NCBI GenBank assembly: GCA_041660025.1
Contig: JBAZXD010000002.1
Coordinates: forward strand, 68,635 to 132,634
Origin: Minisyncoccota bacterium
GTDB lineage: Bacteria > Patescibacteriota > Minisyncoccia > Phycocordibacterales > Phycocordibacteraceae
Direction: 5' to 3'
Length of the DNA: 64,000 nucleotides
The translations under genes were made by a program, and so were the position numbers. This document shows positions 27,253-31,775 of the stretch, in pieces (position 1 is the stretch's first letter; each line of letters starts with the position of its first letter). The notes under the pieces are model-generated. The model was not told where the DNA came from. It saw nothing but the letters and a program-made list of their open reading frames with translations, and did not search any database.

Positions 27253-27609
27253 ATGTCAATCCGAATGCGCCATACAAGAGGCCACACCGGCAACCGCCGG
27301 TCGCATCACGCGCTCTCCGCCACCAAGACGGTGACGGATAAAGAGAGCGGGAATCTCCGCCTCCCTCACCACCTCGACGAGGCGACGGGTATGTACCGTG
27401 GCAAGCAGATCGCGGCACCGCGCGTGAAGGCCGCGAAGGGCGAGAAGAAGGTAAGAGGTCTATCGACCGAACCGACGCCTGTGCACATTCACGAGCATGC
27501 GGCAGAGGTACACGCGAACGCCGAAGCGAAGAGTTCGAAGGGTATCTCCGGCAAGGTCGCTACCGGCGGTCGGCCGAAGGCGCGGAGCGGTTTCGGCGGT
27601 GGAGTGTAA
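27253..27609 (+). CDS. rpmF: 50S ribosomal protein L32 with an unusually long C-terminal extension
   Basis: 'MSIRMRHTRGHTGNRRSHHALSATKTVTDKESGNLRLPHHLDEATGMYRGKQI' matches the L32 pattern (RRSH.AL...HH...YRGK). An extra ~60 basic/Gly-rich residues follow. Confidence 0.72.
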   Translation: MSIRMRHTRGHTGNRRSHHALSATKTVTDKESGNLRLPHHLDEATGMYRGKQIAAPRVKAAKGEKKVRGLSTEPTPVHIHEHAAEVHANAEAKSSKGISGKVATGGRPKARSGFGGGV

Positions 27610-27623
27610 TTTTCAACAGGAGA

Positions 27624-27652
27624 AAAACGGCCGCGCTTGCGCGGCCGTTTTG
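27624..27652 (+). terminator. rho-independent terminator after rpmF
   Basis: AAAACGGCCGCGC-TT-GCGCGGCCGTTTT, a 13-bp perfect stem, then GTTTGC. Confidence 0.65.
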
Positions 27653-27681
27653 TTTGCTATACTACTCGCACAGATCTTTCC

Positions 27682-28605
27682 ATGGCGAACCGACATTTAG
27701 CGCGCTCAGTTGTTCTCCAGACGCTCTTCGAGTGGGACACCACCCGCGCGAGCGAGAAGGACACGTTTGCCATCCTCGCCCGTAACGTCGCGGAATTTGG
27801 CGGCGATGATGTTGATCAGCCGTTCATGGACAGCCTCCTCAAGGGTGTGCTCGCAAAGAAGGATGATATCGACCTTGTCATCGGCAAGGCGGCGCCTGAG
27901 TGGCCCCTAGAGCGTATCGCCCCAGTCGACCGCAATATCCTCCGGCTCGGGCTCTACGAGCTCCTCTTTGCTGACCGCACGCAGGTGCCGGCGAAGGTCG
28001 CTATTAATGAAGCTATCGAGCTCGCCAAGACCTTCGGCGGGGATTCATCCGGCCGGTTCGTCAACGGTGTCTTGGGCGCGGTCTATAAGGAGCTCGGCGA
28101 GCCGGGCAAGGATGAGCAGGGAGCGAAGAAGGTGAAGCGCGAGGAACTCCCGCTCGAGAAGATGGGCGGCGCTATCGTCTACGCCAAGCACGATGGGCAG
28201 TATTATCTCGCGCTTGTGCACGACGTGTTCGGCCGCTGGACGCTCTCAAAGGGGCACATTGAGGAGGACGCCACGCCCGAGGCGGGCGTGGCGCGCGTCA
28301 TTAAGGAAGAGCTCGGGCTCACTGCCGTAGTGGAGAATCGCGTTGGCGAGAACGAGTACATCGCTTCGCATCCGGAGAAGGGGAAGGTTAGGAAGCACGT
28401 CTGGTTCTTCCTCGCTTCGAGCCAGTTCGAGCCCTTGATACTGAAGAAGAGCGGCGGGCTCGACGACGCGAAATGGTTCCGCCTCCAGGACATCATTGAC
28501 CTCAACTTCTACGATGATATGCTCCCCATCGTTACGGTGGCCGTTCAAAAGCTCCTCGATAAGGCGGGGAGTGAGAGAAGCCGCAGTGCACCAGCACATG
28601 CCTGA
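27682..28605 (+). CDS. nusB: NusB antitermination-factor domain fused to a C-terminal NUDIX hydrolase domain
   Basis: N-terminal 'MANRHLARSVVLQTLFEWD...APEWPLERIAPVDRNILRLGLYELLFADRTQVPAKVAINEAIELAKTFGGDSSGRFVNGVLG' is NusB. The C-terminal 'GGAIVYAKHDGQYYLALVHDVFGRWTLSKGHIEEDATPEAGVARVIKEELGL' carries the Nudix box GX5EX7REUXEEXGU. Confidence 0.8.
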   Translation: MANRHLARSVVLQTLFEWDTTRASEKDTFAILARNVAEFGGDDVDQPFMDSLLKGVLAKKDDIDLVIGKAAPEWPLERIAPVDRNILRLGLYELLFADRTQVPAKVAINEAIELAKTFGGDSSGRFVNGVLGAVYKELGEPGKDEQGAKKVKREELPLEKMGGAIVYAKHDGQYYLALVHDVFGRWTLSKGHIEEDATPEAGVARVIKEELGLTAVVENRVGENEYIASHPEKGKVRKHVWFFLASSQFEPLILKKSGGLDDAKWFRLQDIIDLNFYDDMLPIVTVAVQKLLDKAGSERSRSAPAHA

Positions 28606-29287
28606 TTTCCACACATTTGCAGAAAAACTCGGCCTTTCCTTTAACACTCTCGATCTCCTTATCGAGGCTTTGACGCACCGCTCGTACCTGAACGAGCACC
28701 GCGAGTACACCGGCTCCCACAACGAACGGCTCGAATTTCTCGGAGATGCAGTGCTCGAACTCGCCGCTACTGATTTCCTTTTTAAGAAATTTCCGACGAA
28801 GCCCGAGGGCGAGCTTACCGCGTACCGCGCCGCGCTCGTGAACACCGTCTCCTTGGCCGAGAGCGCACAACTGCTTGGCGTCAACGATTATTTACTGCTC
28901 TCGAAGGGTGAATCGAAGGATACTGGACGCGCGCGCGACGTAATCCTCGCGGACGCGTTCGAGGCCATCATCGGCGCGGTGTATCTCGACCAAGGGTTCG
29001 CGGCCGCCGAAGCGTTCATCGCGAAAAACATTTTTAATAAAATCGATAAGGTCATCGCAAATCGTTCGTACCAGGACGCGAAGAGTCGCTTCCAGGAAAT
29101 CGCACAGGAGAAGCGGGGCACCACGCCGTCATACGAAACGCTCTCTGAAATCGGTCCCGATCATAATAAGCGCTTTACCGTCGGCGTCTTCATCGGTTCC
29201 GAGGAGATCGCCCGCGGAGAAGGGCAGTCGAAACAGGAGGCGGAACAGGCTGCGGCTCAAGCAGGCCTTGACAAAACTGGGTGGTAG
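28598..29287 (+). CDS. rnc: ribonuclease III
   Basis: 'LTHRSYLNEHREYTGSHNERLEFLGDAVLELAATDFLFKKFP...EGELT' is the RNase III signature, with a C-terminal dsRBD 'KSRFQEIAQEKRGTTPSYETLSEIGPDHNKRFTVGVFIGSEEIARGEGQSKQEAEQAAAQ'. Overlaps nusB-nudix by 8 nt. Confidence 0.9.
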   Translation: MPDFHTFAEKLGLSFNTLDLLIEALTHRSYLNEHREYTGSHNERLEFLGDAVLELAATDFLFKKFPTKPEGELTAYRAALVNTVSLAESAQLLGVNDYLLLSKGESKDTGRARDVILADAFEAIIGAVYLDQGFAAAEAFIAKNIFNKIDKVIANRSYQDAKSRFQEIAQEKRGTTPSYETLSEIGPDHNKRFTVGVFIGSEEIARGEGQSKQEAEQAAAQAGLDKTGW

Positions 29288-29356
29288 GTTCATAATTTAA
29301 CCAGAACAGGAGCTGATGAATTCCTCGTCGGCAGAACCTTTGCGAGGTAATTGAAT

Positions 29357-29497
29357 ATGTTTAAATTCAGAACGTGGAAGACTGTACTGCCTGTAGCTTT
29401 TGGTGGTGCCGTTTATGTGGCAACTAAAGGAAACATCCCAGCCACGACCATGATTGCCTTCCTTACCGCATTTGTGATTACGGTATGTGGAATATGA
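29357..29497 (+). CDS. possible 46-aa small hydrophobic protein (not in the ORF track)
   Basis: ATG 29357 to TGA 29495-29497 encodes 'MFKFRTWKTVLPVAFGGAVYVATKGNIPATTMIAFLTAFVITVCGI'. It lies in an AT-rich spacer and is followed by the 29515..29546 terminator. Confidence 0.3.
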   Translation: MFKFRTWKTVLPVAFGGAVYVATKGNIPATTMIAFLTAFVITVCGI

Positions 29498-29514
29498 TGG
29501 ACAGTCACACCGAC

Positions 29515-29546
29515 ACGCCCTCCACCGAGAGGGCGTTTTGTTTTTA
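29515..29546 (+). terminator. rho-independent terminator
   Basis: ACGCCCTC-CACCGA-GAGGGCGT followed by TTTGTTTTTA. Confidence 0.6.
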
Positions 29547-29564: not shown

Positions 29565-31775
29565 ATGTTGAAGCGACTGGAGATAGTCGGATTTAAATCA
29601 TTCGCCAAGAAGACGGTCTTGGACTTTTCGAATGCGACCACGGCGATAGTGGGGCCGAACGGCTCGGGCAAATCAAATGTCGCTGAGGCGTTTCGCTTCG
29701 CGCTCGGCGAGCAGTCGATGAAGAGTATGCGCGGCAAGCGCGCCGAGGATCTCATCTGGGGCGGTTCGCACACCGCGCCGCGGGCGAACCGCGCTTCGGT
29801 CGCCATCATCTTCGACAACTCGCGCCGGCAGTTCAAGATAGATTTCGACGAAGTGTCCCTCGAGCGGGCGGTCTTCCGCGACGGGACGAGCGAATATTCT
29901 ATCAACGGCTCGCGTGTCCGGCTCCGCGACATCGAGGAGCTGCTTGCCGGTGCGAATATCGGCGAGACGGGGCACCACATCATCTCCCAGGGCGAGGCCG
30001 ATCGGATACTGCTCGCCAGCCCTCGCGACCGGCGCGCGATGCTCGAGGACGCGCTCGGGCTTAAAATCTATGAATTCAAGAAGCAGGAGGCGACGAAGAA
30101 GCTCGGGAAAACCGAGGAGAATATCTCGCAGGTGAATTCGCTCCGCCGAGAGCTCGCGCCGCATCTGCGCTTCCTCGAGAATCAGGTGAAGAAGCTCGAG
30201 CGTGCCGACGCTCTGCGCATCGAGCTCGTCGGCCTCGCCCAGACCTATTTCGCCATCGAGGACGTCTATATCGCACAGGAGAAATCGAAAGTTGCGGGAG
30301 AGAAACGCGATGCGACGGAACGGCTCGCGGTGGTAAGTGCCGAGCTCGACCGGGTCGCCGACCCGAAGTCGGCTGACCAGGGGACGATTACGCGCACCGA
30401 AGCATTGCGAAAGGCGGAGCGCGAAGTCTCCGAGCTTTCCGGAGAACGTGCGACGCTCTCGCGCGAGATGGGTCGTATCGAGGGCGCGCTCGCCGAGGTG
30501 AAGCGCCGCGCCACCCTGGTTGCGCGCGAGCCGTATGCGAAGGTGCCGCGCGAGGAGCTCGAGGCCCTGCATACCGAAGTGGAGCGGCAGGCGGAGAACG
30601 TCGGAAGCAATATCGAATCCCTGCGCGCCGCGCTCGACGCCATCCGCGCGGCGGTGAAGTTCTTCTTCAGCCGGCACGGCGCGCCGGGCGACGACCGATT
30701 CTCTGAAGAGGAGGACTCAGCGTTCAGACTTGAGGCGGAACGCGCCGCGCTCGCCGAGAAATATGCAACGATTTCCGCCGGTCTCGAACGGGCAGAAACG
30801 GCACGCGCGCGTTCCCGCGAAGCGATGGTCGCACTCGAAGAGACCGACCGCGAGGTTCGGCGTCGCATTCTCGATTCCGCTCAGGCCAAGGCACACGAGG
30901 AGGGCACTGTCGCAAAGGCCACTGCAAGGGAGTACGAGCTCTCGCTCCTCGCTGAAGCGCTCGAACGCGAGAAGGGAGAGGTGCTCGCGATAGGTGGCGC
31001 CGCGACCGTCTCCTACGCCCCGGTAACGCATCTGCCCGACGAAGACCGTAAGACGCAGGAAGAACGCAAACGGTCTCTCGAACGTACGAAAATTCGCCTC
31101 GAAGAAGCGGGAGGCACGGGCGAGGAGATACGACAGGAGCACAAGGAGGTGTCCGAGCGCGAAGCGTTCCTCGCGACTGAGCTCGACGACCTCGCGAAGT
31201 CAGCCGCGGGATTAAAAGCACTCATCGACGACCTCGATACGGAATTGCAGAAGCATTTCTCCGAGGGGCTTGCTTCGGTCAATGCGTCATTCGGCGAATA
31301 CTTCGCGCTTATGTTCGGCGGCGGCGGTGCCCGACTCACGCTCGAAGAACCTGAAGAGCCTGAGGAACTAGACGGAGAAGAGCAAGAAGAATTTAATGAT
31401 GAACCAAGGGAGAAGGAGCGTCCGGGCATCGAGATCGCCGTCAACCTGCCGAAGAAGAAAGTGCGTTCGCTGATGCAGCTCTCGGGCGGCGAGCGCGCGC
31501 TCACGAGTATCGCGCTCATCTTCGCGATGAGTCAGGTGAACCCGCCGCCGTTTTTGATACTGGACGAGACCGACGCCGCTCTCGATGAAGCCAACAGTCG
31601 CCGCTACGGCGATATGATAGAGAACCTCGCGAAGAAGTCCCAGCTCATCGTCATCACCCACAACCGCGAGACGATGAGCCGCACGAGCATCCTCTACGGC
31701 GTCACGATGGGCGCTGATGGTATCAGTAAGCTCCTCTCGGTGAAGTTCGACGAAGCGGTGGCAGTTGCGAAGTAG
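29565..31775 (+). CDS. smc: SMC-family chromosome segregation ATPase, short form of 736 aa
   Basis: Walker A 'IVGPNGSGKSNVAEAFRFALGEQS', long coiled coil, signature motif and Walker B 'LSGGERALTSIALIFAMSQVNPPPFLILDETDAALDEANSRRYGDMI'. It is much shorter than canonical SMC; a hinge-reduced or RecN/Rad50-like variant cannot be excluded. Confidence 0.8.
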   Translation: MLKRLEIVGFKSFAKKTVLDFSNATTAIVGPNGSGKSNVAEAFRFALGEQSMKSMRGKRAEDLIWGGSHTAPRANRASVAIIFDNSRRQFKIDFDEVSLERAVFRDGTSEYSINGSRVRLRDIEELLAGANIGETGHHIISQGEADRILLASPRDRRAMLEDALGLKIYEFKKQEATKKLGKTEENISQVNSLRRELAPHLRFLENQVKKLERADALRIELVGLAQTYFAIEDVYIAQEKSKVAGEKRDATERLAVVSAELDRVADPKSADQGTITRTEALRKAEREVSELSGERATLSREMGRIEGALAEVKRRATLVAREPYAKVPREELEALHTEVERQAENVGSNIESLRAALDAIRAAVKFFFSRHGAPGDDRFSEEEDSAFRLEAERAALAEKYATISAGLERAETARARSREAMVALEETDREVRRRILDSAQAKAHEEGTVAKATAREYELSLLAEALEREKGEVLAIGGAATVSYAPVTHLPDEDRKTQEERKRSLERTKIRLEEAGGTGEEIRQEHKEVSEREAFLATELDDLAKSAAGLKALIDDLDTELQKHFSEGLASVNASFGEYFALMFGGGGARLTLEEPEEPEELDGEEQEEFNDEPREKERPGIEIAVNLPKKKVRSLMQLSGGERALTSIALIFAMSQVNPPPFLILDETDAALDEANSRRYGDMIENLAKKSQLIVITHNRETMSRTSILYGVTMGADGISKLLSVKFDEAVAVAK

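Follow-up and report, generated by a model that had tools for sequence, protein, structure and literature searches.

What could a Nudix domain be doing at the end of the transcription antitermination factor NusB? The question is raised by a gene at positions 27682..28605 (+ strand) of a 64,000-nucleotide stretch of DNA from a Minisyncoccota bacterium (contig JBAZXD010000002.1, positions 68,635 to 132,634 of the forward strand; hereafter the window), in which one open reading frame (ORF) encodes both domains immediately upstream of rnc, the gene of RNase III. The present analysis established the fusion itself, its orthology to nusB, the subfamily to which its Nudix half belongs, the pattern of retained and lost residues, and the evolution of that pattern in related genomes. 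The reading that we favour, with about as much belief as doubt, is that of a NusB orthologue to which a module for adenine nucleotide polyphosphates is tethered; in this lineage the module would only bind its ligand or cut it very slowly. The protein unites two known domains in an undescribed but widely conserved combination, with an unusual, repeated loss of catalytic residues.

The nusB-nudix ORF runs from the ATG at 27682 to the TGA at 28603-28605 with no internal stop and encodes 307 amino acids. Its translation, which includes MANRHLARSVVLQTLFEWD...VNGVLG and GHIEEDATPEAGVARVIKEELGL, is identical to NCBI MFA5998274.1, deposited as 'transcription antitermination factor NusB [Candidatus Paceibacterota bacterium]'. 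It exceeds the Pfam gathering cut-offs for two domains: PF01029 (NusB) over residues 7-136, with E 8e-35 and 120.5 bits against 23.1, and PF00293 (NUDIX) over residues 176-274, with E 8e-11 and 42.6 bits against 21.1. An apparent fusion may be created by a chimeric assembly, a sequencing frameshift or the read-through of two genes. Against such an artefact speak the continuity of the ORF and the equal composition of its halves, with GC content and GC content at third codon positions of 0.60/0.75 in the first and 0.59/0.78 in the second. Furthermore, the 120 best clusters in a database of 5.8 billion proteins, 85-94% identical to the query, all contain both Pfam domains, and they come from independent sources (NCBI, JGI, ENA and Logan assemblies), some of them on contigs as long as 993 kb. 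A scan of one genome per GTDB species gave 80 loci, and tblastn with the window proteins showed the two domains joined in a single frame in 51 of these. The probability of an artefact is thus negligible, and the single continuous ORF with two domains proposed in the initial annotation is upheld by the profile scan as well as by the survey of orthologues.

The fusion is old and by no means limited to close relatives. In a library clustered at 50% identity, 146 representatives were found at E<=1e-30, and among the best 150 representatives 57 were 270-360 residues long, most of them aligning end to end with the query at identities down to 29%. The carriers, which are uncultivated, are labelled Kaiser-, Zambryski-, Nomura-, Ryan-, Niyogi- or Komeili-bacteria, or have generic Paceibacterota/Patescibacteria labels, while NusB alone is present in about 29 loci, labelled Moran-, Azam-, Yanofsky-, Nealson- and Staskawicz-bacteria, among others. 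The gene block dnaE(-)/rnhB/rpmF/nusB/rnc/smc/rnr(-) is common to fused and NusB-only genomes, and the order rpmF, nusB-nudix, rnc is kept even in a distant fused relative (P0211). As the block is shared and the Nudix part has been added between nusB and rnc, the fusion gene is, judging from synteny, the nusB orthologue of its carriers, and one branch of the ultra-small Patescibacteria gained the C-terminal Nudix domain. Two candidates for separate nusB and nudix genes were rejected: one (P0251) lies at a contig edge with a NusB C-terminus in frame upstream, and the other (P0239) is on a contig of only 695 bp. No account of a NusB-Nudix fusion was found in the literature searched, and NCBI names the fused proteins plainly 'transcription antitermination factor NusB', which agrees with the earlier impression that this architecture is not a described family.

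The neighbouring rnc gene (28598..29287, +) encodes a protein of 229 amino acids with the Pfam domains Ribonucleas_3_3, Ribonuclease_3 and dsrm, and orthologous proteins can be aligned with it from the first residue onwards. Within ATGCCTGA the rnc start (ATG at 28598) and the nusB-nudix stop overlap by 8 nucleotides. The initial annotation had correctly described this overlap, but had also taken the proximity of rnc as a sign of what the Nudix domain does. In NusB-only genomes rnc lies directly 3' of nusB, so that the adjacency is older than the Nudix domain; it is therefore informative on NusB and RNase III in Patescibacteria and not on Nudix.

One fused locus is unusual in its genetic code. 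The NusB-Nudix gene at L048:6001-6951 (CAZWMQ010000003.1, GC 28.5%) contains three in-frame TGA codons, which align to the near-invariant tryptophans W74, W186 and W265 (query numbering), and the dnaE gene of the same organism has two more, both aligned to Trp. Reassignment of TGA to Gly (code 25) occurs in other Patescibacteria, e.g., Gracilibacteria and Absconditabacteria. To judge from these alignments, TGA seems to stand for Trp in the L048 organism (code-4-like) and not for Gly.

The N-terminal half of the protein, residues 1-138 (27682..28095, +), is an all-helical NusB domain. It scores 127.7 bits with the nusB equivalog model TIGR01951, for which the cut-off is 88.35, and it is 53-63% identical to stand-alone NusB proteins at the same genomic position in other Patescibacteria. 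AlphaFold2 (AF2) predicts seven helices across residues 4-138 with a predicted local distance difference test (pLDDT) above 90, and Foldseek matches this half to the NusB structures 3imq and 1eyv in the PDB, with a template modelling (TM) score of 0.85. NusB binds ribosomal protein S10 and the boxA RNA in the nascent rRNA leader, near the 5' end of the transcript; we assume the same binding for the fusion protein from its membership of the NusB family. The two halves are connected by a linker, residues 139-157 (28096..28152, +), which begins with YKELGEPGKD and is otherwise poorly conserved. In the AF2 model, built on an alignment of 60 fused proteins, the mean pLDDT is 91.5 and the predicted TM score (pTM) 0.68, while residues 145-150 of the linker have pLDDT below 50. 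These predicted values fit two well-folded domains without a set mutual orientation.

The end of the NusB domain is also variable where no Nudix follows. A C-terminal motif, Y[KR]E[LM]GEPxK[DE], is common in patescibacterial NusB proteins, and YKELGEPGKD itself is present in the NusB-only proteins P0153, P0158 and P0178; differing tails come after it. Among NusB-only proteins, P0178 and P0189 have Lys-rich tails and P0249 and P0257 acidic or Ala-rich ones; P0158 ends in an unknown domain of about 120 residues, and P0153 in a stretch with a weak, below-cut-off cytidylyltransferase-like match. They were considered as degenerate Nudix domains and rejected, being Lys-rich or acidic low-complexity sequence, frameshifted fragments, or the unrelated domain of ~120 residues. 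In Patescibacteria the C-terminus of NusB seems to be particularly prone to the addition of modules.

To which Nudix subfamily does the C-terminal half, residues 158-302 (28153..28587, +), belong? AF2 predicts an alpha/beta/alpha fold over the whole of it, and the PDB structures matched by Foldseek include the Ap4A (diadenosine tetraphosphate) hydrolase of Aquifex, aq_158 (3i7u), and Ndx1 (1vc8), both with TM 0.84. Across the NUDT2/aq_158-type hydrolases of diadenosine polyphosphates (ApnA) the TM scores range over 0.80-0.84. Further matches include M. smegmatis MutT1, the C. elegans and human Ap4A hydrolases, CT771, the Nudix domain of NrtR, and Dcp2; no solved protein with both NusB and Nudix domains was among the PDB matches. 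A profile built from 25 Nudix halves and searched against all PDB sequences agreed with this, with aq_158 first (E 8.6e-21), followed by CT771 (E 1.3e-15), the Ap6A (diadenosine hexaphosphate) hydrolase Ndx1 (E 5e-14), human NUDT2 (E 1.6e-13), the C. elegans Ap4A hydrolase (E 1.2e-12), MutT1 (E 1e-10) and Dcp2 (E 6e-10). BdRppH was matched over 37 positions only (E 4.7e-5), and E. coli RppH was not matched in this search at E<=1e-3. The hallmark D-x4-W-T-x-P-K-G is common to the Nudix half and the NUDT2-type ApnA hydrolases.

The initial annotation had suggested an RppH-like or NAD-decapping identity, which these comparisons do not support. The RppH model NF001936 reaches 14.9 bits against a cut-off of 118, over residues 171-216 only, and Val occupies box position 16; the NudC model NF001299 reaches 14.3 bits against 158, and since the Nudix half contains no cysteine (none occurs after residue 150 of the protein), a zinc motif of the NudC type is impossible. 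Membership of MutT was rejected on the curated cut-off. Because the best profile and fold matches and the hallmark agree, and because the RppH and NudC models remain far below their cut-offs, the Nudix half is placed by its sequence with the NUDT2-type ApnA hydrolases, and not with RppH or NudC.

The Nudix box itself, GHIEEDATPEAGVARVIKEELGL (residues 191-213; 28252..28320, +), is degenerate according to both the sequence and the family survey, although it had been annotated as complete. Compared with the canonical Gx5Ex7REUxEExGU it reads G191-HIEED-A197-TPEAGVA-R205-V206-I-K-E209-E210-L-G212-L213, so that two canonical Glu are missing: that of box position 7, where A197 is encoded (28270-28272), and that of position 16, where V206 is encoded (28297-28299). 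G191, R205, E209, E210 and G212 are kept. The same pattern is fixed in the query clade. None of the 120 close relatives has Glu at position 7 and all have Val or Ile at position 16, while G1, D6, R15, E19, E20 and G22 of the box are essentially invariant. Position 16 corresponds to E53 of E. coli MutT and RppH, mutation of which (E53A in RppH) is the usual route to a dead enzyme. In the profile alignment V206 falls on E58 of NUDT2, the nearest enzyme that has been characterised. Wild-type human NUDT2 takes 5' phosphates off pppRNA, and the E58A variant fails to dephosphorylate pppRNA or pppGpA (PMC8616924); the E58A mutant is also present in the PDB (4ijx).

These substitutions bear directly on the possibility that the Nudix half is an active RppH-like or cap-removing enzyme, delivered by NusB to the nascent pre-rRNA leader, where it would turn a 5' triphosphate or cap into a monophosphate and so license processing together with RNase III. 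This explanation gains from the ability of NUDT2, a member of the parent subfamily, to act on pppRNA (PMC8616924), from the match of the Nudix profile to Dcp2, and from the co-transcription of the gene with rnc through overlapping stop and start codons. Moreover, R205, E209 and E210 are retained, and a canonical box in about half of the species-level relatives makes activity plausible there. In the query, however, Ala and Val stand at positions 7 and 16, neither Glu is present in any of the 120 close relatives, and the corresponding NUDT2 and RppH mutants are inactive. The low scores with the RppH and NudC models, the existence of the rnc adjacency without Nudix, and the drift of other catalytic residues after the loss of Glu16 (see below), which would not be expected under continued catalysis, point in the same direction, and we regard an active 5'-end enzyme in this organism as unlikely.

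The residues that line the ligand pocket of the Ap4A hydrolases have had a different fate. In those enzymes the P1 phosphate site is held by Lys42 and Tyr82, a loop Tyr and Phe128 stack on either side of the adenine ring, and the amino group of the adenine is contacted by Glu130 (PMC4734340). In the fusion protein K190 (28249..28251, +) aligns to the P1-phosphate Lys42 of the human Ap4A hydrolase, and the other correspondences with NUDT2 are Y226 with Y82, K238 with K89, W265 with W116, Y277 with F128 and D279 with E130. The predicted ligand-binding set K190, Y226, K238, W265, Y277 and D279 is conserved; for K190, Y226, Y277 and D279 the conservation in the fused family is 83-98%.

Conservation was calculated over 53 diverse fused representatives, and the top positions of the Nudix half turned out to be non-catalytic ones. 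Y277 is conserved in 98% of them and K190 in 96%, followed by W186, W265 and position 242 (Tyr, but Phe in the query) with 92% each, G163 and T187 with 89% each, D181 with 85%, Y226 with 83% and K238 with 77%. The box residues score far lower: 57% for Arg15, 53% for Glu19 and only about 25% for Glu16. The representatives and species loci were then combined into a set of 102 fused proteins and divided into 35 with Glu16 and 67 without it. Where Glu16 is present the other catalytic positions are nearly always intact, and where it is absent they drift: E7 falls from 94% to 58%, R15 from 97% to 55%, E19 from 94% to 60% and E20 from 94% to 75%. The pocket residues do not follow, with 97% and 96% for K190, 86% and 88% for Y226, and 100% and 93% for both Y277 and W265 in the presence and absence of Glu16, respectively. 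No column of the 102 proteins showed a consistent gain of an acidic residue where Glu16 is absent, which argues against a relocated catalytic base, although it does not exclude one.

The loss of Glu16 is not a single event. Neighbour-joining trees show canonical boxes scattered among degenerate ones, and on a tree made without the box columns Fitch parsimony requires at least 18 changes of Glu16; with Glu16 taken as ancestral and no regain allowed, about 30 losses follow from that tree, a figure inflated by neighbour-joining errors. The trees thus indicate that the catalytic Glu16 is a residue lost many times across the fused family. In the query lineage the loss is recent, because its nearest relatives outside the clade (L002, L003, L004 and L032, with 71-77% identity) have a fully canonical box; within the clade Val or Ile at position 16 is fixed in 120 of 120 close clusters. 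From the distribution of box types, the module is catalytic-looking in about a third to half of the lineages and probably binding-only or very slow in the rest. At the same time, the domain is not a decaying remnant, since it is as well conserved as its housekeeping neighbours: over 44 fused loci the median identity to the query is 55% for the Nudix half, compared with 58% for Rnc, 56% for DnaE, 48% for SMC and 46% for RNase HII.

Could a domain with such a history have become a pure scaffold? SuhB, a protein with the inositol-monophosphatase fold, is a structural subunit of the antitermination complex in E. coli, and the Nudix fold might in a similar way offer a protein-protein surface within the rRNA antitermination complex, with no need for a nucleotide ligand. 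The repeated loss of catalytic residues from a domain that is itself kept would suit this explanation, and so would the most degenerate members, P0236 and P0202, in which the Pfam NUDIX match is lost. Nevertheless, the best-conserved residues, K190, Y226, Y277, W265 and D279, align to phosphate-binding and adenine-stacking residues and thus point to a ligand pocket, which makes a ligand-free scaffold very improbable.

The conservation data also bear on whether the two domains have anything to do with each other. The Nudix half could be a house-cleaning or alarmone hydrolase, or a binder of free dinucleoside polyphosphates, joined to NusB by accident in a compact genome, sharing its expression and having no role in the antitermination complex. 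Its nearest solved relatives are indeed free-standing Ap4A and Ap6A hydrolases, the linker is flexible with no interdomain contact predicted, and the several unrelated tails on patescibacterial NusB indicate that additions are tolerated there. On the other hand, proteins with identities as low as 29% and the genomes of 51 species retain the two domains in a single frame, and no convincing split version was found, the stand-alone Nudix matches being fragments at a contig edge or on the 695-bp contig. A pure hydrolase that lacked its catalytic residues would hardly stay at a housekeeping level of conservation. An accidental union appears unlikely.

We therefore return to the NusB orthologue with a tethered nucleotide-polyphosphate module. 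A binding module is suggested because the family can do without the catalytic residues but not without those of the pocket, and because the domain as a whole is strongly constrained, as in the NrtR family of regulators. In that family an intact Nudix signature goes with ADP-ribose pyrophosphatase activity, and members whose signature is perturbed have lost activity and sense a ligand through the pocket (PMC2330246). Judging from its family, the NusB half would work as a normal antitermination factor, binding S10 and boxA in the leader of nascent rRNA. The Nudix half, derived from NUDT2/Aquifex-type Ap4A hydrolases, would retain a pocket that accepts an adenine nucleotide and its polyphosphate chain, in which K190 and Y226 hold the phosphate, Y226 and Y277 stack the adenine and D279 contacts the amino group; the box pair E209/E210 is likewise kept. 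Where the box is intact, relatives would probably hydrolyse the ligand, while here, with V206 and A197, it would be bound and left uncut or cut very slowly. Recognition of nucleotide polyphosphates would in this way be brought to the NusB/S10/boxA complex on RNA polymerase. Candidate ligands are free alarmones of the Ap4A type, or the 5' end of nascent pre-rRNA in its pppA or Np4A-capped form; the RNA 5' end is plausible because NUDT2 acts on pppRNA and because NusB/S10 binds boxA near the 5' end. The identity of the ligand, the loss of activity, and an effect on antitermination or rRNA processing are what we infer from these patterns. As to the coupling of nucleotide or 5'-end chemistry to rRNA antitermination that the initial annotation had envisaged, binding is in this organism a more likely basis than hydrolysis.

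Several points weigh against this reading. R205, E209 and E210 are retained, and so is D196, invariant in the query clade, beside the absent Glu of position 7, so that some residual or altered catalytic activity in this protein is conceivable. A fully canonical box in about half of the species-level relatives indicates that hydrolysis is probably selected in much of the family, and it might persist here by another route. The AF2 model shows no confident interdomain contact, given the pTM of 0.68 and the disordered linker. Nothing in the window bears on the ligand or on the link to rRNA: Rfam and ARAGORN, run over all 64 kb for an rRNA or boxA context, found one tRNA-Thr only. Finally, the absence of a second NusB or Nudix match, which favours orthology with nusB, holds for the 64 kb of the window.

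In its furthest form, the idea would be of an antitermination complex with a built-in reader of nucleotide polyphosphates, which captures the pppA or Np4A 5' end of pre-rRNA or senses Ap4A-type alarmones, and so links 5'-end status or stress to rRNA transcription and processing by RNase III, with hydrolysis in the intact-box lineages and sensing or tethering elsewhere. We put this forward as a speculative proposal that is more likely wrong than right by some distance. NusB is a core and well-studied antitermination component, for which no published version with a nucleotide-binding or enzymatic domain was found. In a conserved fusion of this kind, nature itself would offer evidence for an interaction of dinucleoside polyphosphates, or of the chemistry of RNA 5' ends, with the rRNA transcription complexes, a link so far only hypothesised. 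The family also constitutes a natural experiment in the passage from enzyme to pseudoenzyme, with repeated catalytic loss and conserved ligand residues, and its active-looking and dead-looking orthologues at 71-77% identity are suited to direct comparison. Database entries named plain 'NusB', which number in the thousands, conceal the second domain.

The surroundings of the gene have some features of their own. The conserved upstream neighbour is rpmF (27253..27609, +), encoding ribosomal protein L32, recognised by Pfam Ribosomal_L32p and by synteny in most related loci. Its product of 118 amino acids is about twice the usual length of L32 and matches Pfam only over residues 6-54; counterparts of the Lys/Ala/Gly-rich C-terminal tail are confined to the closest relatives, and in more distant loci the similarity covers no more than residues 1-53 to 1-68. 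A terminator scan detected an intrinsic-terminator-like hairpin 3' of rpmF (27624-27651 followed by a T run, +), with a stem of 12 pairs, 8 of them GC. Directly 3' of this hairpin and about 19 nucleotides before the nusB-nudix ATG lies TGCTATACT (27655-27663, +), a possible extended -10 element recognised by eye and not reported by the promoter scan. No obvious Shine-Dalgarno sequence was seen for nusB-nudix, which suggests a very short leader. Provided that TGCTATACT is a -10 element, nusB-nudix and rnc would form a two-gene unit of their own.

Downstream, the gap between rnc and smc (29268-29540, +) contains a near-consensus promoter-like site, TTGACA-17-CATAAT, at 29268-29296 and a terminator-like hairpin at 29515-29536, and between them a small ORF (29357-29497) for a hydrophobic peptide of 46 residues, MFKFRTWKTVLPVAFGGAVYVATKGNIPATTMIAFLTAFVITVCGI. 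The element at 29357-29497 may encode a small membrane protein or represent a small RNA; no Rfam match was obtained in the gap. The SMC-like gene that follows (29565-31775, +) encodes only 736 amino acids, with Pfam SMC_N over residues 1-721 and no hinge domain among its Pfam matches. Distant relatives match this protein as two pieces with a longer middle region between them, and its coiled coil or hinge may, by this comparison, have been shortened in this lineage.

Several known systems can be compared with the fusion. With the NusB family (E. coli 3imq/3d3b, M. tuberculosis 1eyv) it has in common the equivalog score, the helical fold and the gene slot, but unlike these proteins it carries about 170 extra C-terminal residues, made up of the linker and the Nudix domain. 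A precedent for joining a NusB-fold RNA-binding domain to a domain acting on rRNA is the 16S rRNA m5C967 methyltransferase RsmB/Sun. The RsmB models match the NusB half weakly (57.6 bits, which falls short of the curated cut-off of 319 and excludes membership), the fusion has no methyltransferase domain, and its NusB half is a true NusB equivalog, unlike the RsmB-type paralogue.

For the other half, the NUDT2-type ApnA hydrolases (3i7u, 1vc8, 4ilq, 3u53, 1ktg) share with the fusion the P1 Lys/Tyr and the adenine-stacking aromatics; however, they are free-standing and have an intact box, whereas the Nudix half here is joined to NusB and lacks the Glu of box positions 7 and 16. RppH and NudC belong to the same Nudix superfamily and act on RNA 5' ends. 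Dcp2 has a similar layout, with a helical N-terminal regulatory domain, a hinge and a Nudix domain, and Foldseek aligns 250-276 columns over both domains. The two-domain superposition is nevertheless poor (TM 0.30-0.35, root-mean-square deviation 10-15 A) and does not support kinship of the N-terminal domains; moreover, Dcp2 is eukaryotic with an intact box, while the box of the fusion is degenerate.

A parallel in logic is offered by the NrtR/AraR regulators, two structures of which, 3gz8 and 5bs6, were recovered with the Nudix half in the fold and profile searches. As in the fusion family, a Nudix domain is there attached to a transcription-related module, and members with intact and perturbed signatures are mixed. 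In NrtR the Nudix domain is N-terminal to a winged-helix DNA-binding domain and has its origin in ADP-ribose pyrophosphatases, whereas in the fusion NusB is N-terminal and the Nudix domain originates from Ap4A hydrolases. With no winged helix-turn-helix in the fusion, the resemblance to NrtR is an analogy in logic and not one of family membership.

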